Source of the DNA: an uncultured Gammaproteobacteria bacterium | Lineage (GTDB): Bacteria > Patescibacteriota > Patescibacteriia > 2-01-FULL-39-33 | Length of the DNA: 54,761 nt | NCBI GenBank assembly: GCA_964361645.1 | Contig: CAYIBK010000004.1 | Span: forward strand, 1-54,761 | Reading direction: 5' to 3' | Part shown: positions 2,720 through 23,497 of the stretch, piece by piece | Layout of the letters: each line of letters opens with the position of its first letter | Numbering within the stretch: the stretch's first letter is position 1 | The notes under the pieces: generated by a model | Told to the model about the DNA's origin: nothing | Database searches by the model: none | Seen by the model: only the letters and a program-made list of their open reading frames with translations | Translations under genes and position numbers: made by a program

Positions 2720-3445
2720 TTAACTTTTTATTAAAACTAATCCCCAAACACTTTTATAACCAGACATTTTTAGTTGCTTGGCACATTCTTCCATAGTAGA
2801 GCCTGTAGTATAAACATCATCCACTATAATAATACGACTATCATAATCAATTGTGGCACTAAGATTAACTTTAAAACTATCAACAATATTGGAACGCCTT
2901 CTATCGGCGCTTAGTCCCACTTGATGTTTATTATATTTTATTTTTTTTAGTAACTTATTATTAATTTTATTGCCCCTAGTTTCACTGATAATGTCGCAAA
3001 TTATTTGTGATTGATTAAAGCCTCGTTCTAAAAATCTTCGGCGATGTAGGGGAACTGGCACTAAAACAAAAAAATCCCGCCAATTGGGATTCTTATTTAA
3101 ATAGTCTGACAATTTAGGTTTTAAATAAGTAAAAATATCATCAATAAAATTATATTTTACAAAATGGATCATTTTACGGCTTAGCTGATTATTTTCAAAA
3201 ATTATCATTAAGCCATCAAGATTTGAACTGTCTTGGCAGTAGCCACAAACGGATCCGTTTCTATTTTCCAATTCGCAAATCGGGCATAAATGGTAACCAT
3301 AGAGCCTGATTTTATTTAGACATCTAGAGCAAATCCAATAGCCCTCCGCTTTACAAGACAAACATTTAATGGGGAAAATGATGTCCAAAATAAATTTTCG
3401 TATTTTACTTCCAATCAACTTCATCGACTTTCCATTCATCACCAA
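2720..3445 (-). CDS. comFC: ComF family protein (ComFC-like phosphoribosyltransferase-fold competence protein)
   Basis: N-terminal Cys4 zinc-finger pattern (CLSC..CSRC, CPIC..CGYC), then VPVPLHRRRFLERGFNQS and the PRT motif IIIVDDVYTTGST. The likely true start is MKLIGS at 3424, because the ORF-track start overlaps the upstream gene. Confidence 0.8.
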   Translation of the reverse strand: MVMNGKSMKLIGSKIRKFILDIIFPIKCLSCKAEGYWICSRCLNKIRLYGYHLCPICELENRNGSVCGYCQDSSNLDGLMIIFENNQLSRKMIHFVKYNFIDDIFTYLKPKLSDYLNKNPNWRDFFVLVPVPLHRRRFLERGFNQSQIICDIISETRGNKINNKLLKKIKYNKHQVGLSADRRRSNIVDSFKVNLSATIDYDSRIIIVDDVYTTGSTMEECAKQLKMSGYKSVWGLVLIKS

Positions 3446-3989
3446 CTTTTATCACCGTTAATTCTACTTTAGAATAACTAGTTACAGGAGTGGCTTGTTC
3501 GCCCAAAGATTTGATTAACTGAAGCGAAACCACCACCACCGCTTGATTATCCTTTAAATATATCAGCTGATTGTTTAAAGCCTTAGCTTCTTGAGCCTCA
3601 TAGCCATCTCCCCCTATATTAGAAGTGGCAATAAAATTATCAATGAAAGATTGCATTTTGGCAGTAGAGAGTATTTTTAAATCTTGTAAGTTCTTAAAAT
3701 TAGCATCACTCGAATAACTAGCAAATCTTTCTGCATATGAGGAGGTAAGAGCTTCTAATCCGAGGGGATAATCTTTATCATTTTTAATTCTTTCAGGGCT
3801 GGGCTCGGGCAATGAATCAATTTTACCAATAGTTGGGGTTTGATTTTCATTCTGGCTGCCTGGCGGCAATATAACTTCATCAGCCGGCTTCTTTTTAAAT
3901 GGATTAAAAATTAAAAATAACACCACTATAACTATCAATATAATTATAATAATTGAAATTAAAATTATTCTTTTTTTTCTATCATCCAT
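3405..3989 (-). CDS. bitopic membrane protein, possible VirB8/TcpC-like (NTF2-like C-terminal domain)
   Basis: N-terminal TM helix (IILISIIIIILIVIVVLFLIF), a Pro-rich linker, and a roughly 110-aa C-terminal domain ending VELTVIKVGDEWKVDEVDW. It lies directly downstream of the VirB4-like gene. The family call is inference only. Confidence 0.35.
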   Translation of the reverse strand: MDDRKKRIILISIIIIILIVIVVLFLIFNPFKKKPADEVILPPGSQNENQTPTIGKIDSLPEPSPERIKNDKDYPLGLEALTSSYAERFASYSSDANFKNLQDLKILSTAKMQSFIDNFIATSNIGGDGYEAQEAKALNNQLIYLKDNQAVVVVSLQLIKSLGEQATPVTSYSKVELTVIKVGDEWKVDEVDWK

Positions 3990-4105
3990 ATTATTTTATT
4001 TTACTAGCTGGTTAGCTTATTAGCTTATTAGGATTTATTTATAATATTTTCTTCATAAACGATCCCTAATAAGCTAAAAAACTACAACCTACTATATATT
4101 AATTA
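3990..4105. repeat. AT-rich word-palindrome leader (tagcttattag ... ctaataagcta), paralog of 6712-6815
   Basis: ttattttactagctggttagcttattag is shared with 6715-6750, and ctacaacctac is shared with 6795-6805. Internal inverted words are present. Confidence 0.7.
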
Positions 4106-6004
4106 TTATTCTCTGGCTAGCGACTGCTCAAATTCTTTTTTAGCCTGTTCAATCTCTAGTAGTTGCCTAGGATCAGAAGTAATCAACTGATCTTCGGAAT
4201 AGGAAGCCACCACTTTTATGGCTGCATGTTTAGCGCCAGCAAAGAAAATTCCCTCCCCCACTCCGCATTCCAAAAGCAAATATTTTTCTCCTTCGGTTAA
4301 CAAAAATGTTTTTTGGATCAAATCCACAGCCGCCGGAGATTGTTTCATTAACAATTGCAAGGATGAATTATTAACAATAGCCTGGCCGTAAGGGGAAGTT
4401 AAAAAATCGTTAACATCTTGAGTGATGGTAGTAACACCCAAATAATATTTTCGACACCTTTTTACCAGGGCAAATATAAATTTGGCGCTATCCTCTCTTT
4501 GCATCAGCCACCAAGCTTCATCCACTACCAGTATTCTCTTTTTCATTTCGCTTCTAACCACATTCCAGACATAATTAACAATGGTGTATATAGCCAGTGG
4601 CTTCAATTCGTCTTCTAAATCCCTAACGCTAAAAGCTACTAATTGATTATTCATAGCCACATTAGTTGGATTATTAAGCAAGCCGGCAAATGTGCCTTCG
4701 GTATATTTTTTTAATCTCAAAACTATACTTTCCCCATTTTCCATACCTTCTAAAATTTCTTGGAAATCCTGCATTACCGGCGCTTCCACTCGGGATAAAT
4801 CGGCCGCCGAAGTAATATCTTTTTTGGCATAAGTTTCTAGTAGCGCCCGATCAATTATAGAATCTTCTTCTGGGGTGATATCTCCGATCATTAATTTAAC
4901 CAAGCCCTTCACAGTAATAACTGCTCCTCTGATAATATCATCAGCTTTAGCCTCATCCCCAATTGACCGGGGCAAGTCAAAAGGATTTATTTGACTCTCC
5001 GAGTTTAGTGAAACATCAATATATGTTCCTCCCACTGCATCACAAAGATGCTTATATTCCCTTTCCGGATCAATAATGATAACCTCAGTGCCAAACATCA
5101 AACTCCTTAAAACTTCTAATTTTATAGCATAAGATTTACCAGCGCCAGAAGTGGCAAATACCACTGAATTGGCATTTTGAAGAGAAAACCGATCAAATAA
5201 AATCAAACTGTTATTGTGACGATTAATACCAAAGAGCACTCCGCTATCGGAAGTTAAATCAGAGGAAACAAAGGGAAAAGAACTAGCAGACGGAGAGGTA
5301 TTCATATTGATTAAAATCTGCAAATCATCAGAAGCAATCGGCAAAGTGGAATTAAAGCCTTGTTCTGCTTGATAAAAAACCCGGCGTGAATAAACCAAGG
5401 TAGAACCTAAAATATTTTCTATACCCTCACAAGAACTGTCCAAGTCTTCCAAAGTTTTGCCGTAAACCGTAATATACATAGCGGTTTGAAAAAAATGTTC
5501 AATGCCTTGGGTAAGATCATCCCTTAATTTTTCCATGTCTCTAAGGGCGGTTTCTCTTAGGGGGTCGCGGGGAGCGCCTTTTTCAGCATCAGAAATGAGT
5601 CCAGCTTGGAGAGCGCCAACTTTTTTCTTGAGTTGTTTTAAAATAACCGATGCTTTAACTGGATAGAAATAAATAGCAATATCGGCTGTCACATCCATAT
5701 TGATAATTGGAGCAAACCAACCCACACTGATATATCTGGGATATTCAATGACAAAAATTGTTTTAATAAAATAATCACCCAGTTTAAGATAAGAACTGGT
5801 TACTTCCAAAGAGGCTGGAGAAATCAAATCACGAATAGAAACCACACCGCGCCTATAGATCTTCTCCTCTTCTATGGTTTTTTTGCTGGTTTCTATATCT
5901 TGAACCATGACTTCTTTCCTTTGCTGGGCGGTTAGAAGCTGTTCTTTTTCTTGTTCCATTTGCCTTATTTTATCAACTTTGTTTAGTTGACTTGGATCAA
6001 ACAT
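4106..6004 (-). CDS. VirB4/TrsE-like type IV secretion ATPase
   Basis: 632 aa. Walker A is VVFATSGAGKSYAIK and Walker B is KRILVVDEAWWLM. The upstream segment IRDLISPASLEV..YFIKTIFVIEYPRYISVGWFAPI is typical of Gram-positive-type VirB4 proteins. Confidence 0.8.
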   Translation of the reverse strand: MFDPSQLNKVDKIRQMEQEKEQLLTAQQRKEVMVQDIETSKKTIEEEKIYRRGVVSIRDLISPASLEVTSSYLKLGDYFIKTIFVIEYPRYISVGWFAPIINMDVTADIAIYFYPVKASVILKQLKKKVGALQAGLISDAEKGAPRDPLRETALRDMEKLRDDLTQGIEHFFQTAMYITVYGKTLEDLDSSCEGIENILGSTLVYSRRVFYQAEQGFNSTLPIASDDLQILINMNTSPSASSFPFVSSDLTSDSGVLFGINRHNNSLILFDRFSLQNANSVVFATSGAGKSYAIKLEVLRSLMFGTEVIIIDPEREYKHLCDAVGGTYIDVSLNSESQINPFDLPRSIGDEAKADDIIRGAVITVKGLVKLMIGDITPEEDSIIDRALLETYAKKDITSAADLSRVEAPVMQDFQEILEGMENGESIVLRLKKYTEGTFAGLLNNPTNVAMNNQLVAFSVRDLEDELKPLAIYTIVNYVWNVVRSEMKKRILVVDEAWWLMQREDSAKFIFALVKRCRKYYLGVTTITQDVNDFLTSPYGQAIVNNSSLQLLMKQSPAAVDLIQKTFLLTEGEKYLLLECGVGEGIFFAGAKHAAIKVVASYSEDQLITSDPRQLLEIEQAKKEFEQSLARE

Positions 6005-6036
6005 ATTTGGCTTAATTTATTAGGATTTATTTTTAA

Positions 6037-6711
6037 TTATCTCTCAATATCCAGTTTATTTATATCGGCCATCTTTTGGCTTTCGGAAATAGCTGGATTA
6101 TAAGTATTATAAAACAATTCGATTAACGATTGGGTATTTAAAACAGAAGCTCTTAGTCCCATAGATGATAAGCCAGAAACTATCTTATCAACTCCAATAA
6201 AGAGTTCCTTGTGACGCTTGATAAATTCTTTTTGAGTTAATTTAATCAGTTTAGTGGGCGAAATAACATCACTGCCTCTTTGCCAAAAATTTCTTTTTTT
6301 GCTAGAGGTGGGATTATAATAAACCACCACATAAAATCTTTTGGTCATAATATCTCCTAATTCCACTAATTCGGTAATATATTTGCGATATTCTGTGGTT
6401 TGAAGTTTAAGTAAATCATTGGTCTGTTCTTGTTCGGCTCTTTTGATATCTAATAAATAATTATCTAAATTCAATTTTCTGGATTGGATTACTATCTGCA
6501 AAGTTGTATCTAGGGAATTCAAAAAAGATATATAGCCAAAGATGATGGCATTTTGCTCATCTTCTGATTTAAGGGCAAAATTTATGCTGGACACCAAAAG
6601 AATGGCGCGAAGTGTGCCCTCTTTCATCACCATAGTATCATCCCTTATTTCGGAAATGGTCATATAACTTTGGGTACTGGGTGTTGATTTGGTTGCTTTT
6701 CTGTCAGCCAT
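6037..6711 (-). CDS. T4SS-associated protein resembling the extreme N-terminal domain of Gram-positive VirB4 proteins
   Basis: 224 aa. The segment ISEIRDDTMVMKEGTLRAILLVSSINFALKSEDEQNAIIFGYISFLNSL..LQIVIQSRK matches by eye the pattern at the start of TrsE/PrgJ-class VirB4. It lies 32 nt upstream of the ATPase ORF. Confidence 0.45.
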   Translation of the reverse strand: MADRKATKSTPSTQSYMTISEIRDDTMVMKEGTLRAILLVSSINFALKSEDEQNAIIFGYISFLNSLDTTLQIVIQSRKLNLDNYLLDIKRAEQEQTNDLLKLQTTEYRKYITELVELGDIMTKRFYVVVYYNPTSSKKRNFWQRGSDVISPTKLIKLTQKEFIKRHKELFIGVDKIVSGLSSMGLRASVLNTQSLIELFYNTYNPAISESQKMADINKLDIER

Positions 6712-6815
6712 ATTTATTTTATTTTACTAGCTGGTTAGCTTATTAGGTTATGAGATTTATATATTTTCAGTTTTATCCCTAAAAAGCTACAACCTACAAG
6801 CTATTTATTATTTTA
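6712..6815. repeat. AT-rich word-palindrome leader, paralog of 3990-4105
   Basis: Shares roughly 40 nt at its start and the ctacaacctac word with the 3990-4105 leader. Confidence 0.7.
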
Positions 6816-7274
6816 TTATTTTAAATTGTTTATTGAATTAATTATACCTTCTCCTTGATAAACTCCGCCAGTATCCACTATTAAAGACAGTTCTGATAAA
6901 TTGGAAGCGTTGATAATCTGCCTTTTTATTTGAGGCAGAGCTATTTTAATTTCTTCTGGCTGTTTCAAACTCAATTTTATATCTTTGTCACTGATAATTT
7001 TTTTCCAAATTTTAAGTTTGGGATTTTTTAAAGTGGATATAAAATTAAGCAAAAAATTATGAAAAGGCTGGCCATTTATTTTGGCAAAAGCAAAAGTCAT
7101 CACAATGCCAAAAGTTAATAAGCCGGAAACAATAAATAAAGAGAAATCAAAAGATTTATAAAAAATAAAAATAATTATTCCTCCGATTAACATCTCAATA
7201 AACTGGCGAACGGTAATGGGGCCGATAATCTTATCTTCAACATCTAAAAATTGTGGTACGGTTATTTGTTCCAT
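6816..7274 (-). CDS. PrgI family protein (VirB3-like small membrane T4SS component)
   Basis: 152 aa. The N-terminus VPQFLDVEDKIIGPITVRQFIEMLIGGIIIFIFY, followed by a second TM helix, is the characteristic PrgI-family pattern. It sits upstream of the VirB4-like genes, as in Gram-positive T4SS loci. Confidence 0.7.
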   Translation of the reverse strand: MEQITVPQFLDVEDKIIGPITVRQFIEMLIGGIIIFIFYKSFDFSLFIVSGLLTFGIVMTFAFAKINGQPFHNFLLNFISTLKNPKLKIWKKIISDKDIKLSLKQPEEIKIALPQIKRQIINASNLSELSLIVDTGGVYQGEGIINSINNLK

Positions 7275-7305
7275 AAATAAGTTTGTAAAGTATAATGTTT
7301 AAAGT

Positions 7306-7650
7306 TTATAAAGTTTTAATAAAACCAGATAATAATTTAGATATTTCTAATGATTTATTATATAATTCATTAAAATTTAACTTAGAAATATATTTAAATT
7401 TTAATGCCAAATATAACATTGATCGCACCTCTCCACAAGAACCCTTGGCAATATATAAAAAATTTTTAAACTCTTTATTAGTATTTCTTTCAAACCCCTC
7501 AGCTACATTATTCATAATAGAGACGGAAGCTCTTTGAATTTGGTTTTTAAAAGCATAATCATTTAAATTCTTAAAGTTATTATACACCAGAACAGTTAAT
7601 TCTCCAGATTTCTGCCAAGCTATTATATCTTCAAATCTATTTATTTTCAT
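7306..7650 (-). CDS. four-helix-bundle protein (23S rRNA intervening-sequence protein family, TIGR02436-like)
   Basis: 114 aa. The pattern FEDIIAWQKS..L...VY........D..FKNQIQRASVSI.NN.AEGF.R.....F..FL.IA.GS..E is the hallmark of this family. Confidence 0.85.
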   Translation of the reverse strand: MKINRFEDIIAWQKSGELTVLVYNNFKNLNDYAFKNQIQRASVSIMNNVAEGFERNTNKEFKNFLYIAKGSCGEVRSMLYLALKFKYISKLNFNELYNKSLEISKLLSGFIKTL

Positions 7651-7685
7651 TACATTATAAACTTTATAACTTTATAACTTTTTAC

Positions 7686-9143
7686 TTAGTAGCGAAGCTG
7701 ACGATTTAACTCCATCACAGAATTAAATTCCTCTATGGATAGGGTTGGCTTGTTCTCATTTATCCTTTCACTAATTATATCATCAATGCTCCTACCTTGT
7801 CGCATGCTCTCTTGGCCCAGTAATCTATAAAACCGATTAACTTCGCTTTTGTGCCAAGCCTCCACGCCCTCCAATTTTTTGCCGTAGGAATCTTTTTCCA
7901 AAAGTTCTATTTTTTCTTTTATTTTGGCTATGGACTGATGGGGTGTTTCGCCTAATCTTCTAAAATTTATCATGGTCATAGTGGCCAGTTCGTCTATTGG
8001 CCCCACCAACATTCCACCAACTCTCACACCGTCCACTGATTGTTTGCCAAACCTGATATTCTTAGGCAGTGGGGTGGGTTGAGCCATGGGCTGGGGCTGT
8101 GGCGCAATTACCGGTTGTTTTATGGCTATTTTTATCTCTTCTAATTTAGGGCGGGCAACTGGTGGCGGGGGTACAGATGATACCGGTGGAGCAGAGGGAA
8201 ATATTTTAGCTGCTTTTTCATAATTTATAGGTGGAACTTTCTTGGCCTGATTAAAACTTACTATTTTAGGCTTGATCATCAGATCATCACCTTGAGGTGA
8301 TTTAATAACCGGCAAACCATCTTCTTCTTCTATTTTGAGAACAGCAGATAAAACCGGTTTTTCTATTTTATGCTCTTCTACTTTTTTTAACTCTAATGGT
8401 GATTCTTGGATGATAAAATTATTTTTCTTGGCTTCTAAAGTGGTTTTTACCGCCGTAAATGGTTTTTTAACCGGAAAAGAAATATTGTTAATTGATTCTG
8501 ATTTTTTTTCTGCTTTCACTGATGAATCTATTAAAGAAAGCAATCCCTGATCCATTTTTTCTTTAACCAAACTTATAATTTTTTTAGCTTGATCATCTGA
8601 CATTTCCAAACCACCGATTTTTCGGCTTTTTTTTAAAGCTTCCATGGTTTCTATTTCATCGCGAATATCTTTTAATCTAGAAATAATGGCATTTTTCAAG
8701 CGACTTAGAATAACTTCATCGCCATTGGTGCTATAGCCCGATTCAGAAATTATCAACTGCGCCAAAGATGAATAATCGTGCACCTTAAAAGAGTCGGCAG
8801 AAGAAGATATTATTTGTTTTATTTCTTCGTCATCTTCATGAAAAAAAGAAACTGGAGCACTAGATTTTAAAGTGCTTTTATTTTCTCTAATTTTAAAATC
8901 ATTTATTAATTTAGATAATTCATTGCTAACATCGCTAATAGAGTTATTGTCTAAATTGGGAAATCTACTCTTTAAATCTGATAGGACAAAGTCACCAACT
9001 ATTAATTCTATAAAAATCAGCGCCAATTCAATATTATATTGATTTTCTAATTTATTAATAACAGATAAGAACCTTGATGATGAAAGAAAATCACGATCAT
9101 CTTTAGATAATTGATGAAATTTTTGTAAACTATTATTAGTCAT
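7686..9143 (-). CDS. hypothetical protein with Pro-rich central linker
   Basis: 485 aa. The N-terminal roughly 70 aa are paralogous to the 289-aa neighbour (LENQYNIELALIFIELIVGDF versus LEKKYQISLAPLIVYWAIGEV). Central tract is PSAPPVSSVPPPPVARP...APQPQPMAQPTPLP. Confidence 0.6.
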   Translation of the reverse strand: MTNNSLQKFHQLSKDDRDFLSSSRFLSVINKLENQYNIELALIFIELIVGDFVLSDLKSRFPNLDNNSISDVSNELSKLINDFKIRENKSTLKSSAPVSFFHEDDEEIKQIISSSADSFKVHDYSSLAQLIISESGYSTNGDEVILSRLKNAIISRLKDIRDEIETMEALKKSRKIGGLEMSDDQAKKIISLVKEKMDQGLLSLIDSSVKAEKKSESINNISFPVKKPFTAVKTTLEAKKNNFIIQESPLELKKVEEHKIEKPVLSAVLKIEEEDGLPVIKSPQGDDLMIKPKIVSFNQAKKVPPINYEKAAKIFPSAPPVSSVPPPPVARPKLEEIKIAIKQPVIAPQPQPMAQPTPLPKNIRFGKQSVDGVRVGGMLVGPIDELATMTMINFRRLGETPHQSIAKIKEKIELLEKDSYGKKLEGVEAWHKSEVNRFYRLLGQESMRQGRSIDDIISERINENKPTLSIEEFNSVMELNRQLRY

Positions 9144-9177
9144 CTTAATTTGTAGCTGTTTAATTCAATACCAATTA

Positions 9178-10047
9178 TTATTTTCCTTGAGTTTCTTCCA
9201 GTGCTTTAAGCTCCAAAGCTGTCATTTCGCTATCCCGACCACTGCCCATAGCTGATGCTCCCACATTATTATTTTTTTCATCAAGTCGAAGGGGTAAAAT
9301 TTCCCATTGTTCTGATGAGACTTCATCAAAAGTTTGAGAAAAAAACTTCAAATTACGATATAAAAGTAATAATCTGGTTACTGTTTCTTTCTCTTCGTTG
9401 GATAAATTTTTAGTATTGGCAGAATTAGTAATATATTGTGATAAATTTACAGTAGTAAAATAATCAGTGCCATTTTTAGCTATAAAATCACTAAGCCAAC
9501 TAGCCACTGTGGGTTCTGCTGATTTACCAGAAATATTTATCAAACCTGGGGTTATTTTTTCTTTATTATCATAAAGAGCTTTTTCCATTGACCCAAAAAA
9601 ATTATGGTCTTGTGATAAAATTGTAAAAATCCGGCTGTTTATGGCATTAATAATAACTGGATGATTATTTAATTCTTCTTTTAGTTGATTTTTTAATATT
9701 TCCAAGATTATCAATTTTTCCTGACTCATAGAAATATTGGTTTTAGCAGGACTAGCATCTAAGAAAATTAGTCTTTCATTAATTGGTTTGATAATTTTCT
9801 CTATTATTTCCGGCTCAATTTGGCCAGCCAATTTTTCTTCGAGTTCTAATTCTTTTTTTAGATAATCTTTGATTTGATCAACTTTAACCTCACCAATCGC
9901 CCAATAAACAATTAAGGGCGCTAAACTGATTTGATATTTTTTCTCTAAAGCAGTTATTTTTTCAGCCGCCCAATTACTATCAATAGTCAAAACTACTTCT
10001 GGAGCTAAATTTTTAAATTTTTCCAAAGCTTCTTCAAGATAAATCAT
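9178..10047 (-). CDS. hypothetical protein (shares N-terminal module with 7686-9143)
   Basis: 289-aa ORF, 14 nt from the upstream gene. No recognisable family. Confidence 0.6.
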   Translation of the reverse strand: MIYLEEALEKFKNLAPEVVLTIDSNWAAEKITALEKKYQISLAPLIVYWAIGEVKVDQIKDYLKKELELEEKLAGQIEPEIIEKIIKPINERLIFLDASPAKTNISMSQEKLIILEILKNQLKEELNNHPVIINAINSRIFTILSQDHNFFGSMEKALYDNKEKITPGLINISGKSAEPTVASWLSDFIAKNGTDYFTTVNLSQYITNSANTKNLSNEEKETVTRLLLLYRNLKFFSQTFDEVSSEQWEILPLRLDEKNNNVGASAMGSGRDSEMTALELKALEETQGK

Positions 10048-10061
10048 AGATTAACTTTTTA

Positions 10062-12575: not shown

Positions 12576-12616
12576 GGTTGGGAAATTAATTGAAAATATT
12601 TTTTATTATTTAAGAT

Positions 12617-13165
12617 GGGATTGCTTCACTAATTTGTCATTGCGAGCTTGTCTACCGTAGGTAGGCGAAACGAAGTGGAGCGAAGCAATCTCATTTCTAA
12701 TTCCGTGGGATTGCTTCGCAAGCTCGCAATGACTGCTGTAAATCATGGGATTGCGGAGCCTGTCCCGAGTTTACGAGGGATCTCCTCGCAATGACAACTG
12801 TAAACCGTGGGATTGCTTCGTGCCTCGCAATGACGATGAAGTAAATCGCCATAATGACCTTTGTCATTGCGAGCCTACCTGCCGGCAGGCAGGGGAGCGG
12901 AGCGGGTCCTCGCGAAGGCGGGGAAGCAATCTCGTTTCTAATTCCGTGGGATTGCTTCACTGCGTTCGCAATGACGGTGTGTTTGTCATTGCGAGGGAGC
13001 GGAGCGGACGAAGCAATCTCGTGGTGTGTATCAAATGTGATTGCTTCGTTCCTCGCAATGACAACTGTAAACCGTGGGATTGCTTCGCAAGCTCGCAATG
13101 ACTGCTGTAAATCATGGGATTGCGGAGCCTGTCCCGAGTTTACGAGGGATCTCCTCGCAATGACA
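12617..13165. repeat. array of A-type palindromic elements (three full hairpin units plus half units), with a 90-nt internal direct duplication and one B-type palindrome at 12874-12893
   Basis: Full units lie at 12636-12732, 12863-12975 and 12985-13061. The block gggattgcttcgcaagctcgcaatgactgctgtaaatcatgggattgcggagcctgtcccgagtttacgagggatctcctcgcaatgac occurs at about 12707-12794 and again at about 13075-13164. Confidence 0.9.
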
Positions 13166-13193
13166 GTGGAAATAATTGCAATGACCTATGACC

Positions 13194-16100: not shown

Positions 16101-19100
16101 AACGCCTTTATCATCCACCGAAGCGCACAAGCCCAAATCCAAACAACGATCGTTGTTGCCATAAATAGGATCAACGCTATTGGGATCATCTTTTTCATAA
16201 GTGGTGCAGTAAAGCCAGCTATAGCAAGTTCTATCTGGCTGAACTTTCAAAATAACATTGGAGTCCCCCGTATCAGGCGGAGTAGGAGTTTTGGGAGTAA
16301 GCGGTTTTTGATCCGGATCTTTCATTTGTTTTCTATAGGTGGCATCGGCATCAAAAGTAAGATAATTGGCGTTTCTTTCTAGGACCTCACTGGAAGAATA
16401 ATTCATAGATCCACGATCATTAAACAAAACACAACCGGAGTTGTAATCCACTAAACCATTACAACTTGAATAATCCACCTTATTAGATAAGGAATAATAA
16501 ACACCGGATCGAACCAATCTTAAATTTTTAACTGGTTGATCGGAGGGTAAAAACACTTTGGCCGAACAAATGTCAGATGAATTGTAAACTACATAAAGAC
16601 GGCCGCTAACAGATTTGGGCCAAGCTTTATTACCGCCGTGAATATCCAAACTTGAATCAGGAGAAACAATTAGGCCAGCACAAGAATCATCTAATTTAAT
16701 ATAAGCTTTGTCTGCCACATCTTCTACCGAAAAAGAATAAAGTGTATGAGATAATAAGCTCACCTTCTGAAATAGTTCGGATCCTCTTACTTCCCAATGA
16801 TCTGGTATGTCATTTCCATCAACATCCTGATCCAATTTAACATTTAAAATTTCGTTTTTATAAACCTCGGTTGAAGGATCAATATACTCGGTGCAACTGT
16901 TTTGATCAGTGGGGCAAAGCCCAACCCAGCTTTCATAATTAGCGATTGTGTCAATATTTGTTTGCCACTGGTAATGGTCTGCGCCTGGTGTTAGATAACT
17001 GTTAAACCAGCCCACGGGCTGTAATTTATCATCTTTAGAGCCGGTGCCAATGGTTTGCAAATAAGTAACATCACAAACTTCATTGGTGCCTTTCTGATAC
17101 CATTTGGCTTGGGTTTCGCCGACTTCGGTTCTATATTCGCAAACCCTATCTCTTGGATCCTTAAAATAAGCCACACTTCGAGGGCCAACAAATTCTTCAC
17201 ACCACATAGAACTGGATTTACATAAATCAGTAGAGTACCTGTCGGGCTGATTTTTGATATAAGAAGTGGCGTGGCCCACAACTTCGTCCTGATTATTGAT
17301 GTTGGGCAAGCCTAAAGCCGAACAACCCTTATCATCAGATTTACAACTGTATTTGGCATCATTAACCATATAAACAAAATTATCATCTGGCACCACCACT
17401 TGGGACGAATCACCAGCATTGAAAGTAGCACCGTAATAAGAGTCGGAATTATAAGTATCAATTAATTGCTCACAGCCCACAGCATCGGCTCGGCATAAAT
17501 TTTCAAACGATTTCAAAAACCAAGTCTGCTTGGATCTATCGCGGTATTCTTGGCAACCAATCATTTTTCCCGGATTAGACCTTTCTGGATTTAGGGCATC
17601 GCCTGCGCCATATGGCTCATCAATATTATTATCGCAAGAGAAGGGCGTAAACCAAGAATTTTCAATAGCATAAACGCTTTGAGGTAATTCTTTGAGTAAA
17701 ATATTATCAATATAGATTGTTTGGCCAGCTGGAATATTTATTTCTACATTCTGTTCAAAATAACCGGTGTTACTTCCCCAATTCACCATAACCGGGCCAA
17801 GATCATAACGATTCCATTCAGCGGTTATGGGAATCAGTAAATCATCATCGGTTACCACATTGGGGTGGCCCACCATAAATGAATCTTCTGGTGGCGCCTG
17901 TGAGAATCTAACTGAATCCAGATTAAAACTATCATCGCCTTTGGCCCAGAAACTAATGGAATACGATTTGTCTTTTCTAATTAAGACTGGTTTAGAAAAT
18001 TTTCTGGAATCATTGGTATTATTGGTAAGAGAATTTCCGCCCGGATGAGTAGCTTCGGTGGCCACAGTTCCGCCCTGCCAGCCCATAGCGCCTGATTCAA
18101 AATTTGATAAAAATATATTCTTAAAGCTACTGCCCTTATTACCGGTGTATTCCCGGCAACCTTTTAAATTAGTTGAGCAAGTTCCGCCCTGGCCGGGAAT
18201 AGCCATATAAATACATTCATTGAAAGAATTGAAGTAGCCTTGGTTGGCCCTACAATCTTGAGCCGCTTCGCTATTATCGTTTTGAGTTTGAGTTCTTCTA
18301 TAAGGGTGACAATTATCATCAGCATAAATCACGCGCGACAATAAACGATAATGAATGTTACCCTCGGTATCGTATAATTCGCGACAATCCGGATTGGAGT
18401 TTAAATCAGTTGCAAGACAAGCGGCATTATTAGTATCTGGATCATTACTTGGAACAGGATCGGTGCAAACATTATTGCCATTTAAATCATTGGGGTAACT
18501 TATATTGGTGCAGGGGGCAATACCCAAACCAGCAGTATCATTTGATTCTTTCAAAGTAAAAACTTTAAGCTGATAGCCGGTAGTATCACTGCCTTCCCAA
18601 GTGTAATAAGTGGCCTCATCATCATAAGCATCGGGTTTTTGGCAAGTTCTAAGCTGGGTGTAATACTCCAGGGCTTCACCGCCTCGGTCAATTTCATCCA
18701 AATTAGTAAACTCATCACAACCGGCAGCAGAGGCCGAGCAAGCTTGTATGGGAGCTTTATTGATAAATTGCTTATATTTGGCAGAAACAAAATTAGTTGG
18801 CTCTTGTTTGTAAACCTGATAACCGGCGCACTCCGAGGGGCAGACATCAGCAGAAGTAATGGTGCCAGGAACAGCTGGATCACGATTGACGGGAGTATAT
18901 AATTCGCAGTTCATTTCGCTGGCTATACAAACACTGGAATAATTAGAGCAAGCCTGATTACGCCTTAAAATAACTTGCTGAAGCTCGGCTAAATCAGTTG
19001 GCCAATCGCCACTAACTGTTAAATAACAATCGTAGTAATTTGGCGCTTTTTTAAGATAAGTCAATTGTGAAGCTGGCCTTTGTGATGGATTATAAGAAGT

Positions 19101-22100
19101 GTAAGAAGTGGGCAAACTTATTTCCGGCATAACTTCCTCTAATTTAACAGCGTCAAAATAAGCTTCCATTACGCCAGTGGCGCTACTTCCTATAACCAAG
19201 CGAGGTTTAACAACTTGGGTTGGTTTATTCCAAACAAAATTAGTGCTAATTGTTGTCCATTTATACAAATCTGCTGTAGTAAATACCTGAGGTTCGGTTT
19301 GTATGGTTTCGCCCTCTAGATCTAAGAAATATTTACCCACTTCTTGAATATAAATCTTGCCGGATAAAACATATTTCTTGCCGTTAATTAATTCAAATGG
19401 GCTAAGTGAAGAAGTATTAGATAAATAAGCGCAATGCTGGGTATTATCAGTAAAATTAGCTTTTAAGCCAATGGATTTTCCGCCTTCAGAACCGGAATTA
19501 ACTAAAAATATTTCACAAGAACTGTCGTTGCCATTGGGGCCAGTTTCACCCACCCAATGAGCTAGATCGCCATAATAATCCTCAAAACTGCCGTCATAAA
19601 TCAAATTACTGCCTAAGCCAGCTTTTACTCTGATGAATTGGCTGCAACCAGCCGATCCAGAATCACAAGCTTGGGCATCACGATCAAAATATATTTCTGA
19701 ATCATTTTTAGCTTGAGAACCAAGATTAAGCCAGACATCGCCAATGGCGCAGGATTCTGGAGCTCCTCGCAAATCAAAATCATCAAAAAAGACAGTACCA
19801 GTGGTGCCAGCGTTGGTAATTACCCTTATTTCTATTTTATTATCCTCTTGAATGTTTTGCGTGGAAAAATCAACAAAATATTGTTGCCAATTTTCACCTG
19901 GCAAGCCAACAGTTACACTACCCAATTCCACCGTAGAAGAGAAAACTTTAACCGCCAGACTGCCGGAGCTAATACCTCCGCGTATATAAAATGATAATTT
20001 ATAAGTTTTATTAGCTTCTATACCCGAATCAATCAAAAGAGTGGAAATAAGCGGATTAGGATTATTAAAGCTTAAGCTTTCTAAAGAATATGAGCCACTG
20101 TGCTTACTGGTGCCAGATCTAAATTGCCTATTGGTGTCATTTTGGTAACTTTCCACCCAAAAACGAGCATCCCAACCGGCCGTGCCAGAAAGTTCAAAAC
20201 CGCTATTGAACGGAGTTAAGATATTGGCAGCGCTCAAACATTTATCCAGCGAACACTTTACACCGCCATAAGGGACAGTGCAGTATTCAGTGGTAAAATC
20301 ACAACCGCCATCAGTGGTACAAGCCTTGGCCATAAAAACGCCCTTGGCACCAGAGGAAGCAGTTTGTTTCCATTGATCAACTTTTAAACCAAACACTTCA
20401 CAGCCATCAACTGTGTTGCAAGTATTTAGAATTGTTTCACTTTCACTATTGAGCCAGGTGCTATCTTTAGTGTTGTATAAAGTGCTATACCACCGGCAAC
20501 CGGCCGATCCGGAATTACAATCGCGATAATCAAGAGTGTTAGCCAAATAAGATCCGGCCGTGCCAGTTTTAGACTGAAATATTTGGCAAGTATTGAATCG
20601 CGGTTGGCATTGAGGAGAATTGGTATCCCAGATTTTTCTTTCTTCGGTGCAATAGCCATAAGCTTTGCAATTACCATCTGAATCTTCGCTAATACATTGC
20701 TGTTCATCGGCGCAATATTGAGTGCGTCTAACCGACTGATCTTGGGAAGTAGCTCTGTCATTATGAACACCATAACCCTGTCGGCGGCAGAAGAGTTCTG
20801 GCGCTTTCAAAACCCATTGCGGATCAATTAAATTTTGAAACGGGCAAGATTTATCGGCCTGACATTCCTCGCCAAATTTTGCTATCAAATCACCCAAGGT
20901 ATAATTTTTATTTTTACTTTGCGACGGATTGCTAAGATACCGGGCGGCAATCTCCCAGCCCACCGGCACAATTCGATACTTTCTTAAAATAACAATATTT
21001 CTCAAAGAAAATGATTCTTGCGGATTAACATTATCAATTGGCGGCACAAATTGCCGATTTAAAATTGAAGCCGGCAGATCTTTAACTAAAGTCTTTTCTC
21101 TGATGGCTTTGGACAAAATCGGATCTATCACGCAATCAGTTGGTCCCGGATTAATCTTGTTGGCCTCGGTGCAAGCCGTTAATTTATTTAAAATATCGTA
21201 AGGCCCGCCTATGGCTATATTGTTTTTTATTAAATTTAAAAATCTTTCTTCAGCGCCAATAGAACCTTCCACATAAGGCGCGGATTGGGGATTTAGAAGT
21301 GCGGCAAACCGGGAAAGATCAGGCATATTAAAGCCATTATCGCCGTTATTACTAGTGCTACCACTGCCGCTCTGGAAATAGCCATCTTTAAGATTTTGCA
21401 AAAGCTGTCCAACTAAGGTATTTAAAAATGTCTCCACAAAATCCCAAACTGTGCCGGTAAAAACCGAATCCTGCTTGCCAGCCCAAAATTGAGCCACCTC
21501 ATGCTGGTTTTTGATCATAGTGCCAGGAGTTAAAATCCAACCGGTTAAATTTTTAAGATCTTTAAAGCCATTATTAATCGAGGCCTCCAGTGCCGAGACG
21601 CCTGTTTTTTCTTTAATATTATCCATTAAGGCCGAACTGGTTTTTAAATAAATGCCAATGTCATTTTCATTGGCACTTAAATAATTGCTGTATTCCACAG
21701 AAAAACTGGCATTATTTATGGCTGATTGCCAATTATTAACCATGCTAGAAAAATTACAAGATGGCTTCCTAGGCTTATAACCTCTTAAACTGGTTTTAAT
21801 CATTAATTCCACATTGAAATTAGGACGGCATAAATTGACCCCAAATTCTTTGTCTATTTCATCAATAAAAGTGCCAGCGGCATCATCGGCGGTATTTTTT
21901 AGATAGGCGCCAATACCCTCGGTAATAAACAATGGCTTTTGGCCCTTACCACCGGAAGCAATCCAAGAGGCGGTATCATAAGCCAATTGTTTGGAAAAAA
22001 CGCTTAACATTGATTTCCAAGCACCTGCTATAACATCCCGCCAAGTCTGCTTTTGAATTTCTCTTAAATCATCGGCGGCAATTTGAATCATGCCATTTTG

Positions 22101-22415
22101 GGTGATGAGTATATTCTGACAATTCATTGATAGTTGTGCCTTAACAATTTCTTCTTTAATAATTGGAGTACAGTCAAATGCGCCACTAGTACCAGCGGGA
22201 ACAAACACACACCAAGCTTGTATGCTATCAGCTAAATGACTACATGCTTCCGCATTAGCAAGCGCTGCCCCACCAGCAGCATCGGCCACACCTCCTGCAG
22301 CTAGGCTCCCCGCAGCAGCACCACCAGGAAGCATTAGGGCATTAGCATCTGATGCGCCAAAAAATAAAAAAACGGGAATCAGTAAAAGTAAAATTTTTAG
22401 TCTGAATCTTTTCAT
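13194..22415 (-). CDS. giant secreted Cys-rich surface protein (3073 aa) with CBM4/9-like modules and a C-terminal PKD-like motif
   Basis: Signal peptide MKRFRLKILLLLIPVFLFFGASDANA. At least four modules open with (N/D)GSFE/SNFESG..GW and end in (F/Y)(F/I)DD(F/I).L. Their approximate nucleotide positions are 19765-20215, 19135-19605, 17680-18112 and 15345-15945. The motif x-G-C-x-x-(F/Y) recurs (SAGCRWY, SAGCSQF, AAGCDEF, LKGCREY, AVGCEQL, DKGCSAL). YTVTWGDGEHS lies near 13460-13490. Confidence 0.85.
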   Translation of the reverse strand: MKRFRLKILLLLIPVFLFFGASDANALMLPGGAAAGSLAAGGVADAAGGAALANAEACSHLADSIQAWCVFVPAGTSGAFDCTPIIKEEIVKAQLSMNCQNILITQNGMIQIAADDLREIQKQTWRDVIAGAWKSMLSVFSKQLAYDTASWIASGGKGQKPLFITEGIGAYLKNTADDAAGTFIDEIDKEFGVNLCRPNFNVELMIKTSLRGYKPRKPSCNFSSMVNNWQSAINNASFSVEYSNYLSANENDIGIYLKTSSALMDNIKEKTGVSALEASINNGFKDLKNLTGWILTPGTMIKNQHEVAQFWAGKQDSVFTGTVWDFVETFLNTLVGQLLQNLKDGYFQSGSGSTSNNGDNGFNMPDLSRFAALLNPQSAPYVEGSIGAEERFLNLIKNNIAIGGPYDILNKLTACTEANKINPGPTDCVIDPILSKAIREKTLVKDLPASILNRQFVPPIDNVNPQESFSLRNIVILRKYRIVPVGWEIAARYLSNPSQSKNKNYTLGDLIAKFGEECQADKSCPFQNLIDPQWVLKAPELFCRRQGYGVHNDRATSQDQSVRRTQYCADEQQCISEDSDGNCKAYGYCTEERKIWDTNSPQCQPRFNTCQIFQSKTGTAGSYLANTLDYRDCNSGSAGCRWYSTLYNTKDSTWLNSESETILNTCNTVDGCEVFGLKVDQWKQTASSGAKGVFMAKACTTDGGCDFTTEYCTVPYGGVKCSLDKCLSAANILTPFNSGFELSGTAGWDARFWVESYQNDTNRQFRSGTSKHSGSYSLESLSFNNPNPLISTLLIDSGIEANKTYKLSFYIRGGISSGSLAVKVFSSTVELGSVTVGLPGENWQQYFVDFSTQNIQEDNKIEIRVITNAGTTGTVFFDDFDLRGAPESCAIGDVWLNLGSQAKNDSEIYFDRDAQACDSGSAGCSQFIRVKAGLGSNLIYDGSFEDYYGDLAHWVGETGPNGNDSSCEIFLVNSGSEGGKSIGLKANFTDNTQHCAYLSNTSSLSPFELINGKKYVLSGKIYIQEVGKYFLDLEGETIQTEPQVFTTADLYKWTTISTNFVWNKPTQVVKPRLVIGSSATGVMEAYFDAVKLEEVMPEISLPTSYTSYNPSQRPASQLTYLKKAPNYYDCYLTVSGDWPTDLAELQQVILRRNQACSNYSSVCIASEMNCELYTPVNRDPAVPGTITSADVCPSECAGYQVYKQEPTNFVSAKYKQFINKAPIQACSASAAGCDEFTNLDEIDRGGEALEYYTQLRTCQKPDAYDDEATYYTWEGSDTTGYQLKVFTLKESNDTAGLGIAPCTNISYPNDLNGNNVCTDPVPSNDPDTNNAACLATDLNSNPDCRELYDTEGNIHYRLLSRVIYADDNCHPYRRTQTQNDNSEAAQDCRANQGYFNSFNECIYMAIPGQGGTCSTNLKGCREYTGNKGSSFKNIFLSNFESGAMGWQGGTVATEATHPGGNSLTNNTNDSRKFSKPVLIRKDKSYSISFWAKGDDSFNLDSVRFSQAPPEDSFMVGHPNVVTDDDLLIPITAEWNRYDLGPVMVNWGSNTGYFEQNVEINIPAGQTIYIDNILLKELPQSVYAIENSWFTPFSCDNNIDEPYGAGDALNPERSNPGKMIGCQEYRDRSKQTWFLKSFENLCRADAVGCEQLIDTYNSDSYYGATFNAGDSSQVVVPDDNFVYMVNDAKYSCKSDDKGCSALGLPNINNQDEVVGHATSYIKNQPDRYSTDLCKSSSMWCEEFVGPRSVAYFKDPRDRVCEYRTEVGETQAKWYQKGTNEVCDVTYLQTIGTGSKDDKLQPVGWFNSYLTPGADHYQWQTNIDTIANYESWVGLCPTDQNSCTEYIDPSTEVYKNEILNVKLDQDVDGNDIPDHWEVRGSELFQKVSLLSHTLYSFSVEDVADKAYIKLDDSCAGLIVSPDSSLDIHGGNKAWPKSVSGRLYVVYNSSDICSAKVFLPSDQPVKNLRLVRSGVYYSLSNKVDYSSCNGLVDYNSGCVLFNDRGSMNYSSSEVLERNANYLTFDADATYRKQMKDPDQKPLTPKTPTPPDTGDSNVILKVQPDRTCYSWLYCTTYEKDDPNSVDPIYGNNDRCLDLGLCASVDDKGVCNNFILKSGTLATENYGEKDIYKTGYSSVGKKSLGVAGYFPFYTMSQFGDSGSVTNGSFESLVVNSVEPLGWSPSESIDNGGILEKFKSEAIGWHDYKFSTITDIKSSPEGSRYLSLSSFYEAISEEIDVFAGSPYILSGWINSSGLNYPDGNVPIKSQIQYSQHAEGGGWSTWKFFDDASLCDSSSCGSLSLDSGLTWTKKVHQFTPLADTDKIKIKLKNFVDEDGCNDTNKLTACKLGGVALFDDISLKPVLQVSNSDNLIDKYVSRSCRIYPAEDSLSCRYLQGNNLFYGSYGYCLLADPSNSKQCLQWWPVDQLQGEVLNEVGGYNDRVPLDYCVDKSSFTVNFTEFGYALALSSEAQEAVAGYFDTNSGNQMNFSPFRVKDDYRPIFRFPYVDRIKVKANGMGLAGGTPSIMIPVNHTMTYDIKKKEWKGWAAIPFCIAIPIESTEIGICIPIPIPYKLASGPIGQVIEMITGIFNSSGMGGGQVAFGPLMGLKVIEDRQASGITSGGTSDPIPDLPGDILGVSWFVKSTANADVVGITMLVSGDFEVNYCNKLVRVVTSSGENKAYANRVTKGSGYINNDIAARPDTPGPIDIKEGKYYYYDPFDYNQFLDSIENPLGQYIGGTALDFPGSISGAASRTIYQIWARITGAIPDAIPISIGDDFSPLGRSKYQSSDYQPFGAIVSPMGSLLNSSGSAANELNAQQLSGSPNPTNWSSRRGLYNMPLFYEPPRLGAFVAPYQARMGELHSKAGLEQLFAQSYGQWKWKWNLCLVGLPNNCFKPDAERGGYYASDDTNDFLSIPTEICNKATREESTNDPCYVKPKVTKIKINDKDNASNKPPTINGGVGLAKLAFTTLIDPDQLPISAYTVTWGDGEHSKVSGVLLRNRTNIENPFLLYHLYDFWKVKGAPSSICDSDSCTIQVIVQVYDNWNKSNCTFDSAIPADNCENENSPHYINLVVNKN

Positions 22416-22421
22416 AAAAGA

Positions 22422-23387
22422 TTAATTGCTTTGCGAATTGAGCTTGGTTAAAAACATAGTCTTTAATTCTTCATCGCTAACTTGGGATAAAACATCCGCT
22501 GGCGCGCCTTGGCTGATCATCAGTTGCCTTATTTGAGCGCCGGTTAGATTTTTTAAATCCTCAATTGATTTTATATTAATCTGGCTTAAACTAGTTGTGC
22601 TTAATGAGGTATTGGTATTACCAGAAATAGTCGGATTCTGCCCCAACATCGCTTGTTGATAAGTAGCCAGCAATTGAGTATCGGTGATGGTATCTAATTG
22701 ATCTTTGGGAAAGCCATTTTTAATCAAAAGTTCCCTAATCACTTTGGGATCAGAAGAAGATGATAATAATGTTTGCTGATCCGCTTGGCTAAGTGTGGTA
22801 TTTAAAACAGCGGTGTCAGTTCTAAAACAGGTATCACTGCCTGGGCAATTAGGATCATGACCAGCGTCTATTTCGGCTTTGTCTAGTACCCCGTCGCTAT
22901 CGCTATCATCCAAATAAGGGCTAGTGCCATAAACATTTAACTCATCGTAATTAGAGAGGCCATCGCCATCAGTATCTTGTAATTGCTGGGCCAAAACAGC
23001 CGAAGCTTCGCTGGGCAAACCAGTATCACTGCCAGCCAGCTTTATTAAATCGGTTAAGGGCTTCTTAATAGAGCTGGACATCTGGGTTACTCCTAAAATA
23101 ACAGCCAAAAAACCAGTAATTAAAACTAAAACCACAGTCACCTTCTCTTTGGTTGATCTACCGTCAACAGAAATATTTTCGTTATCATCAGTAAAACCAT
23201 ATTCATTTTCTGTTCCTAAATACCTTGTTGGCTGTTCTCTATTAAACTGATTTTCACCTTCCATTAAGTGTGGATAAACAGTTAAGTACGAATTAATTAT
23301 ACCACAAAATAACAAAAAACACGAAACCACCAAAACACAAATAACATTTTCATTTCGATCCACTAGCTGACGGAGAAGAAATCTCAT
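22422..23387 (-). CDS. membrane-anchored protein with thrombospondin type-3-like calcium-binding repeats
   Basis: DTDGDGLSNYDELNVYGTSPYLDDSDSDGVLDKAEIDAGHDPN, and one TM helix (VTVVLVLITGFLAVILGV). Its stop is 6 nt from the start of the giant gene. The true start may be the internal MEGENQ at about 23264. Confidence 0.65.
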   Translation of the reverse strand: MRFLLRQLVDRNENVICVLVVSCFLLFCGIINSYLTVYPHLMEGENQFNREQPTRYLGTENEYGFTDDNENISVDGRSTKEKVTVVLVLITGFLAVILGVTQMSSSIKKPLTDLIKLAGSDTGLPSEASAVLAQQLQDTDGDGLSNYDELNVYGTSPYLDDSDSDGVLDKAEIDAGHDPNCPGSDTCFRTDTAVLNTTLSQADQQTLLSSSSDPKVIRELLIKNGFPKDQLDTITDTQLLATYQQAMLGQNPTISGNTNTSLSTTSLSQINIKSIEDLKNLTGAQIRQLMISQGAPADVLSQVSDEELKTMFLTKLNSQSN

Positions 23388-23397
23388 GTCTCAAATT

Positions 23398-23497
23398 GTC
23401 ATTGCGAGTAGATCCCTCGGAAACTCGGGACAGGCTCCGCAATCTCGTGTTCGTTTCAAATGGGATTGCTTCTCCGCCCTGGGCGGATCGCAATGAC
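23398..23497. repeat. A-type palindromic element
   Basis: gtcattgcgagtagatccctcggaaactcgggacaggctccgcaatc ... gggattgcttctccgccctgggcggatcgcaatgac. Confidence 0.9.

Follow-up and report, generated by a model that had tools for sequence, protein, structure and literature searches.

The 54.7-kb stretch of DNA analysed here (the window; contig CAYIBK010000004.1) carries, at positions 2720-23387, a cluster of eleven real minus-strand genes, recognised by open reading frame (ORF) calls at these coordinates and by hidden Markov model (HMM) searches, in which the core of a type IV secretion system (T4SS) is preceded by the genes for a giant secreted protein and a TSP3-repeat membrane anchor protein. 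The cluster is probably the chromosomally fixed T4SS of a Patescibacterium of class ABY1 (Buchananbacteria-like), descended from conjugation machinery of the MPF_FATA type and provided with a host-binding arm made up of the giant and TSP3 proteins. A relaxase-less T4SS has been shown to be indispensable to epibiotic growth in a Saccharibacterium (Southlakia epibionticum; Wang et al., 2023, PMC10633639). A survey of Patescibacteria (Quiñonero-Coronel et al., 2025, PMC12102498) described a distinct VirB4 clade derived from MPF_FATA, with abundant separate TrsD genes beside VirB4, PrgI and VirB6 homologues, VirB8 homologues almost exclusively in class ABY1, relaxases near-absent and ksgA close by; in ABY1 specifically, the T4SS is co-located with comF, recG and radA (PMC12102498). 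This work is summarised in a 2025 FEMS review (PMC12857230). The relaxase-less Patescibacteria T4SS core is, then, already published (PMC12102498, PMC10633639). For a system on which epibiotic growth depends in one tractable species, the giant protein, the TSP3 protein and two further proteins, U289 and U485, are candidates for host-contact and substrate-handling parts. The features of the cluster, in transcription order, are as follows.

22422-23387, minus strand: TSP3-repeat membrane anchor protein (PF18884, 26.9 bits, cut-off 25)
13194-22415, minus strand: giant secreted protein, 3073 aa (signal peptide, 90 Cys, CBM_4_9)
12576-13193, no strand: repeat-filled spacer, 618 bp (about ten copies of a palindromic repeat)
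10062-12575, minus strand: VirB6/TrbL-like polytopic membrane protein, 837 aa (PF04610 and transmembrane prediction)
9178-10047, minus strand: U289, a protein without a family match (N-terminal module in common with U485)
7686-9143, minus strand: U485, a protein without a family match (N-terminal module in common with U289)
7306-7650, minus strand: 23S-rRNA-IVP/Avd-like four-helix-bundle protein (PF05635, E 1.9e-34)
6816-7274, minus strand: PrgI/VirB3-like small membrane protein (PF12666, 32.7 bits, cut-off 27)
6037-6711, minus strand: TrsD-like protein, a free-standing homologue of the VirB4 N-terminal domain (NF041427, E 5.7e-7)
4106-6004, minus strand: VirB4-type ATPase, MPF_FATA/CD1110 family (NF045971, 350.1 bits, cut-off 325)
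3405-3989, minus strand: VirB8/PrgL-like bitopic protein, 194 aa (AlphaFold model and Foldseek)
2720-3445, minus strand: ComFC/GntX-type protein (PF18912, 30 bits; TIGR00201, E 5.7e-28)

An earlier note, made from the sequence alone, had described this run as twelve minus-strand ORFs with mostly very short gaps. The coordinates and strand were right, and the intergenic gaps are indeed short (-41 to 116 nt, with only 6 nt between the TSP3 and giant genes), the sole exception being the spacer between the giant gene and VirB6. The count falls to eleven genes with the rejection of the 133-aa ORF at 12697-13098, a translation artefact of palindromic repeats, which leaves that spacer as the one long gap. 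The minus-strand orientation extends well past the cluster, up to position 33338, so that co-orientation alone is no evidence for one operon. That the whole run forms a single operon is unproven, and the 618-bp repeat spacer parts the giant gene from VirB6.

A relaxase-less T4SS core of conjugative ancestry

The VirB4-type ATPase passes the cut-off of the NCBIfam model for the "VirB4-like conjugal transfer ATPase, CD1110 family" (NF045971), matches the TraG P-loop domain (PF19044, E 8.6e-30) and keeps both Walker motifs intact in its translation (A, GAGKS; B, VVDEAW); its nearest plasmid-borne relatives belong to Bacillota and Actinomycetota, at 29-36% identity. The TrsD-like protein matches positions 98-274 of NF045975 (Mbov_0397 VirB4 family, E 1e-10). 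The match of the VirB4 protein to this model, at 272-892, is directly continuous with it, so that the two proteins together correspond to one canonical VirB4. A TraC-like match (PF26593) is found on homologues of the TrsD-like protein, and the TrsD gene is separate from VirB4 in 60 of 64 related loci, which shows that the separation is not a frameshift. The "split VirB4" of the earlier note therefore holds in so far as two genes make up one VirB4 model, and it is an instance of the TrsD plus VirB4 arrangement already published.

The PrgI/VirB3-like protein also scores above its cut-off. For the 837-aa membrane protein, the PF04610 match of the window sequence alone lies below threshold (22.5 bits, E 1.1e-4, cut-off 25.9), but TrbL is matched by nine of 30 members of its family (best E 1.1e-8) and homologues bear precomputed PF04610/PF19590 matches. 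It is predicted to have about eight transmembrane (TM) segments, and its C-terminus is extended by a hydrophilic region of about 450 aa. Membership of the VirB6/TrbL family is probable. The 194-aa bitopic protein has no Pfam match. An AlphaFold2 model built on an alignment of 16 homologues (predicted local distance difference test, pLDDT, 80.9) has a TM helix at the N-terminus, joined by a disordered linker to an α+β NTF2-like domain. When the PDB was searched with Foldseek, the pCF10 protein PrgL came first through its VirB8 domain (7aed; E 1.2e-4, target TM-score 0.58), followed by TcpC, CagV, TrwG and the VirB8 protein of R388; other NTF2 proteins (ARC6, the CaMKII hub) score similarly to PrgL, and a search of PDB sequences with the family profile places PrgL at E 1.1, which is not significant. 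The predicted fold thus supports a VirB8/PrgL-like assignment, as proposed earlier. The cluster encodes a cytoplasmic-membrane translocon consisting of a probable VirB6-like channel, PrgI/VirB3, TrsD with VirB4, and the VirB8/PrgL-like protein. The minimal monoderm-type core proposed in the earlier note is borne out by HMM matches for PrgI, TrsD, VirB4 and ComFC and, at the level of the family, for VirB6.

The order TrsC/PrgI-TrsD-TrsE/VirB4, the VirB8-fold protein downstream (PrgL/TraM) and, probably, the VirB6-like channel are common to this cluster and to the MPF_FATA systems of pGO1/pIP501 and pCF10/CD1110, and a Pontibacillus megaplasmid (Bacillota, CD1110 type) has genes in a similar order (pilin-like, VirB6-sized, small, TrsD-sized, VirB4, peptidoglycan hydrolase). 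In pCF10, a large surface adhesin, PrgB, is encoded upstream; PrgB and the giant protein of the window are unrelated. Unlike these systems, the window cluster has no relaxase, type IV coupling protein (T4CP) or peptidoglycan hydrolase, and it is not on a mobile element. The closest likeness is to the T4SS clade of the Patescibacteria, with its MPF_FATA-type VirB4 and separate TrsD, PrgI/VirB3, VirB6 (in this cluster a probable member) and VirB8-like proteins, chromosomal position near KsgA, comF/recG/radA neighbourhood and lack of a relaxase or T4CP nearby. As a probable member of this clade, the cluster would descend from a monoderm conjugation machinery that has lost its relaxase and coupling protein. 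The cluster differs from the clade as described in having neither a VirB2-like pilin array nor a VirB1-like hydrolase, in the 3073-aa Cys-rich protein with its carbohydrate-binding module (CBM) and the TSP3 anchor upstream of VirB6, and in the conserved paralogues U289 and U485, whose genes lie between VirB6 and PrgI.

With Pfam and NCBIfam, the ORFs of the 54.7-kb window yielded no relaxase, VirD4/TcpA coupling ATPase, integrase or recognisable pilin, and neither an excisionase nor attachment repeats were found within it. The locus is chromosomal and is not an ordinary integrative and conjugative element (ICE), in agreement with the earlier note, which had seen none of the former four functions and had set the cluster apart from conjugative elements; the flanks hold housekeeping genes. 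It might still be the decayed remnant of an ICE, as the stretch 240-560 bp downstream of ComF holds two tRNA-Ser genes and the T4SS genes are of conjugative ancestry. Such an origin is very improbable: besides the missing integrase, relaxase, T4CP and attachment repeats, the core genes are all intact, including the Walker motifs of VirB4, base composition reveals no island, and in many species this locus is bordered by the same housekeeping genes, a conserved chromosomal synteny that effectively refutes this explanation.

Conservation of the giant and TSP3 genes beside the translocon

One genome per species was scanned, yielding at least 531 loci with a relative, of which 80 were fetched with 10-kb flanks (numbered below with the prefix L) and each family was mapped onto them with jackhmmer. 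Downstream counts refer to the 64 loci with at least 7.5 kb of sequence downstream of VirB6, and upstream counts to the 68 loci with at least 3 kb upstream. VirB6 homologues occur in Buchananbacteria, Falkowbacteria and unclassified Patescibacteria metagenome-assembled genomes (MAGs), and every related locus belongs to a Patescibacteria MAG or to a MAG that is mislabelled and has the same synteny. Across dozens of species, and in 80+ loci, the genes recur in the order [KsgA]-TSP3-Giant (2300-3300 aa)-VirB6-U289-U485-PrgI-TrsD-VirB4-VirB8-like-[ComF-P167-RecG], where P167 is a 167-aa protein, and the frequencies are as follows.

U485: 60 of 64 loci
PrgI: 60 of 64 loci
TrsD: 60 of 64 loci
U289: 57 of 64 loci
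VirB4: 56 of 64 loci
VirB8-like, after VirB4: 53 of 64 loci
Giant homologue directly adjacent to VirB6 (upstream): 42 of 68 loci
Giant homologue within 10 kb of VirB6, not adjacent: 11 of 68 loci
No giant homologue in the upstream sequence available: 15 of 68 loci

The adjacency of the giant gene and VirB6 is kept down to 28-31% VirB6 identity. At two loci (L006 and L076), the giant gene adjoins VirB6 and U289 although the downstream part of the locus lacks PrgI, TrsD and VirB4 genes. Reverse look-ups starting from homologues of the giant N-terminus placed the gene upstream of VirB6 in both of the two cases, one of which has LeuRS-FemAB-MFS-KsgA-TSP3 upstream, as in the window. In 26 loci, a TSP3 homologue precedes the giant gene. 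The synteny therefore argues for a well-supported link between the giant/TSP3 genes and the T4SS core. Several loci had at first sight appeared to contain "split" T4SS clusters, an idea that was rejected because several of them (L026, L044, L052, L073 and L074) simply carry a PfkB-AdoHcyase-MetK insertion.

The earlier expectation that the giant gene, T4SS core and comF form a conserved block in related genomes is thus confirmed, with the giant gene adjacent to VirB6 in the 42 loci listed and comF following the VirB8-like gene in 20 of 46. Its further statement that the combination is functionally uncharacterised has to be narrowed, given that the relaxase-less core, the comF/recG/radA neighbourhood and the proximity of KsgA are published; the giant/TSP3 link seems to be unreported. 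Neither the giant/CBM/TSP3 protein nor the U289/U485 pair is mentioned in connection with a T4SS in PMC12102498 (including its text supplements) or PMC10633639, and the giant/CBM/TSP3-T4SS link is also not mentioned in PMC12857230 or in full-text literature searches. A paper on giant proteins of ABY1 deals with different, FhaB-type proteins (PMC11809585). The giant and TSP3 module, with the U289/U485 pair, is apparently an unreported feature of ABY1 T4SSs.

The giant exoprotein and its putative anchor

The giant protein begins with a Sec-type signal peptide (…SDANA) and has a CBM_4_9 module at residues 736-867 (E 1.1e-9), further jelly-roll-like starts of the type "NGSFE..GW" at about residues 940, 1438 and 2161, and repeated Cys-rich linkers. 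A full-library HMMER search with residues 1101-2100 as the query returned a family of 1262 representatives at 50% identity, 1070 of them with E<1e-30 and nearly all of 2400-3900 aa; none of ten members looked up is named beyond "hypothetical protein". Conservation extends over almost the entire length (residues 100-700, 900-2500 and 2900-3000), the variable regions being the CBM_4_9 area (about 700-900) and residues 2500-2900, and the giant proteins of relatives have PA14 domain or other jelly-roll matches in place of the CBM. The protein is read from these sequence features as a Sec-exported, disulfide-stabilised scaffold with exchangeable carbohydrate-binding modules. Pfam searches on four segments found CBM_4_9 alone, the C-terminal 913 residues gave no NCBIfam match, and the C-terminus shows no visible LPXTG sortase motif. 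In two relatives (L087:10001-20595 and L088:10001-19295), the giant gene is broken into five to nine consecutive ORFs; the contig names suggest long reads, and the breaks are probably frameshift errors rather than real splitting, which calls for caution in automated surveys of this family.

The longest ORF of the TSP3 gene encodes 321 aa, and an alignment with 11 homologues indicates that the start is probably Met42, at about position 23264. From Met42, the protein consists of a single predicted N-terminal TM helix followed by two Ca-binding TSP3 repeats, and it also has a CPx4C motif and two C-terminal helical motifs.

In the mechanism proposed for the favoured reading, the giant protein and the Ca-binding TSP3 anchor would form an extracellular host-binding arm of the T4SS, taking the role that PrgB-type adhesins or VirB2 pili have elsewhere. 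The giant protein would be tethered via the TSP3 anchor or the long VirB6 extension, its variable carbohydrate-binding inserts (CBM_4_9 here, PA14 in a relative) would set host-surface specificity, and VirB4 would energise the contact-dependent passage of macromolecules between symbiont and host. The large ABY1 lineage has its T4SS core beside one family of giant carbohydrate-binding exoproteins with more than 1,000 sequence clusters, and the variable lectin inserts may help to predict the host range of uncultivated lineages.

As to what would pass through such a channel, there is a slight lean, still short of an even chance, towards the uptake of host nucleic acids handed to ComFC, RadA and RecG, with the export of proteins to the host as a tentative second option and the giant protein as an unrelated neighbour less probable than either. 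A bolder variant, in which the giant and TSP3 proteins are true extracellular T4SS subunits that stand in for a pilus or adhesin and form a host-docking conduit on VirB6, and the whole is a Ced-like importer bringing DNA straight from the attached host cell to ComFC, RadA and RecG and so supplying nucleotides to these nucleotide-auxotrophic episymbionts, appears improbable.

ComFC and the direction of transport

The ComFC protein has an N-terminal double zinc ribbon (DZR_2, PF18912, above its cut-off of 27 bits) and a C-terminal PRT domain scoring just under its cut-off (PF00156, 24.7 bits against 26.3), and it matches the comF model TIGR00201 over its full length, under the strict equivalog cut-offs. 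The start of its gene and the VirB8-like gene share at least 20 nt, as they do in L001, L003 and L005. Among 46 related loci, the gene after the VirB8-like gene encodes ComF in 20, a DsbA-like thioredoxin in 14 and RadA in seven; RadA comes after DsbA in L004, and RecG lies two genes beyond ComF in relatives. The DsbA-like gene following the cluster in 14 relatives fits a disulfide-rich giant exoprotein. Examples of this neighbour, whose link may relate to the 90-Cys giant, are L040:18840-19832 and L045:18852-20192. A direct ComF-VirB6/U289 link, for which L006 had been a candidate, was rejected, as the 224-aa protein concerned is an ordinary full-length phosphoribosyltransferase.

Such neighbours invite the explanation that the cluster serves DNA import, as do ComB in H. 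pylori and Ced in the Sulfolobales: VirB6 and VirB4 would pull host or environmental DNA across the single membrane and ComFC, translationally coupled to the VirB8-like protein, would process single-stranded DNA with RadA and RecG for nucleotide salvage or recombination. The overlap of the ComF and VirB8-like genes speaks for it, as do the presence of ComF or RadA as the next gene in 27 of the 46 loci (and of RadA after DsbA in L004), the nearby RecG of relatives and the published ABY1 co-location of comF, recG and radA (PMC12102498). ComB and Ced are likewise T4SS-derived, lack a relaxase and coupling protein and are tied by function or neighbourhood to competence proteins such as ComFC, and these organisms have no nucleotide synthesis (PMC12102498, PMC11809585). 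The VirB4 protein shows weak homology to CedB (NF041017, E 8.8e-11); at 41 bits, far under the 700-bit cut-off, the match is generic VirB4 homology. No subunits specific to ComB (ComB7/9/10) or Ced (CedA/A1/A2) were detected, generic VirB4 homology being all that was found; ComB is a diderm VirB2-10 system feeding ComEC, and Ced uses CedA/A1/A2/B. ComF is not at the position after the VirB8-like gene in 26 of the 46 loci, ComF, RadA and RecG are housekeeping genes of an ordinary kind within a stably syntenic region, the PfkB-AdoHcyase-MetK trio can sit inside the cluster, and no DNA-binding component was identified among the cluster's proteins of no known family. A competence route via type IV pili and ComEC already exists in Patescibacteria (PMC10633639, PMC11809585). 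In Saccharibacteria, comEC is dispensable and the T4SS is essential (PMC10633639, PMC12857230), so that the essential role is not classical competence, which leaves room for ComEC-independent import. DNA import is, on balance, a possible but somewhat doubtful account of the system, and the ComB-like import suggested in the earlier note is, for this cluster, speculation by analogy, with ComF next in fewer than half of the loci and housekeeping genes interleaved.

The opposite direction of transport has also to be considered, in which a T4CP-less T4SS would deliver proteins onto or into the host for episymbiosis, in the manner of Ptl, Brucella VirB or the effector translocator suggested for Saccharibacteria, and the giant protein would be an adhesin or a surface-deployed effector. 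Export is the ancestral function of T4SSs, and some exporters do without a T4CP (Ptl and Brucella; PMC12102498, PMC12857230). For the relaxase-less T4SS of Saccharibacteria, Wang et al. favoured either the export of proteins or another role (PMC10633639); the giant protein, as predicted from its sequence, is extracellular and carbohydrate-binding. Bordetella Ptl and Brucella VirB need no coupling protein, and the substrate of Ptl first crosses the membrane via Sec, as the giant protein would. Unlike the window cluster, both are diderm systems with a VirB7/9/10 core, and a Sec-exported protein of a monoderm needs no second translocation: the signal peptide of the giant protein means that it needs no T4SS to cross a single membrane. 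Neither candidate effector/immunity genes nor secretion-signal-bearing proteins were identified in the cluster, and U289 and U485 could be anything. Export is thus a tentative explanation, held with low confidence.

Is the giant protein part of the system?

Several observations weigh against a host-binding arm, and some of them fit the alternative that the giant and TSP3 proteins are an independent adhesin module, placed beside the T4SS through inherited gene order alone. KsgA and LeuRS, which are clearly unrelated neighbours, are likewise syntenic in these streamlined genomes, as are FemAB and the major facilitator superfamily (MFS) transporters. The PfkB-AdoHcyase-MetK trio lies between U289 and U485 at five loci (L026, L044, L052, L073 and L074); as housekeeping genes can interleave the cluster, adjacency is weaker evidence than guilt by association usually provides. 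There is no giant gene in the available upstream sequence of 15 of the 68 loci, and the 618-bp repeat spacer separates the giant gene from VirB6 in the window. No anchor or T4SS-interaction domain is recognisable in the giant protein, a phmmer search with the whole protein against PDB sequences returned nothing at E<=1, and the AlphaFold model of residues 56-720 is unusable (pLDDT 38), the homologue search for this segment having returned seven proteins only. To these points may be added the frequent absence of ComF from the position after the VirB8-like gene and the dispensability of comEC, both mentioned above. An independent module is nevertheless rather unlikely, because the adjacency is kept at low VirB6 identity, also where other neighbours differ (L004, L006, L015 and L020), because the gap between the giant gene and VirB6 is only 10-226 nt in relatives, on the same strand, and because the giant gene stays beside VirB6 and U289 in L006 and L076, where PrgI, TrsD and VirB4 are missing downstream. 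The trio itself (PfkB, S-adenosylhomocysteine hydrolase and SAM synthetase) is annotated in L044 (13470-16977) and inferred elsewhere from matching gene sizes; similarly sized genes occupy the same position in L025, L029 and L032.

Accessory proteins and inserted genes

U289 (289 aa) and U485 (485 aa) have an N-terminal module of about 90 residues in common (hhalign probability 97.6%, E 4.5e-12), which upholds the shared head module noticed earlier. In U485, a Pro-rich linker joins this module to a conserved domain at the C-terminus. Neither protein has a match in Pfam, NCBIfam or PHROGs, or a significant one by family profile against PDB sequences. U289 is probably cytoplasmic, since no TM segment or signal peptide is predicted. 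U289 follows VirB6 and U485 is directly upstream of PrgI in most loci (57 and 60 of 64, respectively). Neither has a predicted signal peptide, and the two are probably lineage-specific, cytoplasmic accessory proteins.

The 23S-rRNA-IVP/Avd-like four-helix-bundle gene at 7306-7650, left unnamed in the earlier note, lies inside the T4SS cluster. Homologues are present in just nine related loci, at differing positions; being rare and variable in position, the gene looks like an insertion, and it is probably unrelated to the T4SS rather than a part of it. The pattern is suggestive of a mobile or selfish insertion, and there is no reverse transcriptase nearby.

In at least 54 related loci, a family of two-TM proteins of 160-260 aa is encoded directly upstream of VirB6 (for example, L017:9260-9871, L044:9323-9892 and L004:9499-9981). 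Its members are charged at the N-terminus and carry two hydrophobic helices, a Cys cluster and the motif "FCKLGxEW", with no Pfam or NCBIfam match; the family is not present in the window or in its closest relatives. Its slot is the position of the pilin-like gene in the Bacillota CD1110-type cluster.

The palindromic repeat

The spacer at 12576-13193 is filled with an intergenic repeat of palindromic sequence (GTCATTGCGAG / CTCGCAATGAC), present in about ten copies, and includes a perfect 94-nt duplication. A simple terminator scan found no minus-strand terminator in it. The window contains the repeat 32 times (expected, 0.57), always in intergenic positions; the repeat is often accompanied by GAAGCAATCCCA and usually forms inverted pairs 60-230 bp apart. 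It looks like a repetitive extragenic palindrome (REP) or miniature inverted-repeat transposable element (MITE). Further sites matching GTCATTGCGAG/CTCGCAATGAC are the following.

23398-23497: repeat site
28230-28295: repeat site
35017-38681: repeat site
43361-43939: repeat site
49955-50054: repeat site
52546-52639: repeat site

Flanking genes and other parts of the window

The upstream flank of the cluster encodes KsgA/RsmA, a DUF559 protein, two MFS transporters, FemAB, leucyl-tRNA synthetase (LeuRS), elongation factor P, single-stranded DNA-binding protein and ribosomal protein S6. Between about 33800 and 43300, GC content (0.42-0.445) is above that of the rest of the window; a DNA methylase gene (33808-35004) lies here together with numerous copies of the palindromic repeat and seven ORFs (120-365 aa) for which Pfam gave no match, and the region may be a variable or defence-type island.

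The downstream flank consists of the two tRNA-Ser genes, a gene for a 167-aa two-TM protein and tRNA-Arg, and an Rfam search of the window returned tRNAs only. The 167-aa protein (P167; 1068-1571, minus strand) is conserved and combines a pair of adjacent TM helices with a C-terminal domain that is soluble; it has no family match and is found between ComF and RecG in 15 related loci. Two abutting tRNA-Arg(GCG) predictions (876-945 and 945-1018, minus strand) have one boundary base in common; one of them is weak (36.9 bits, Rfam) and may be a degenerate tandem copy.

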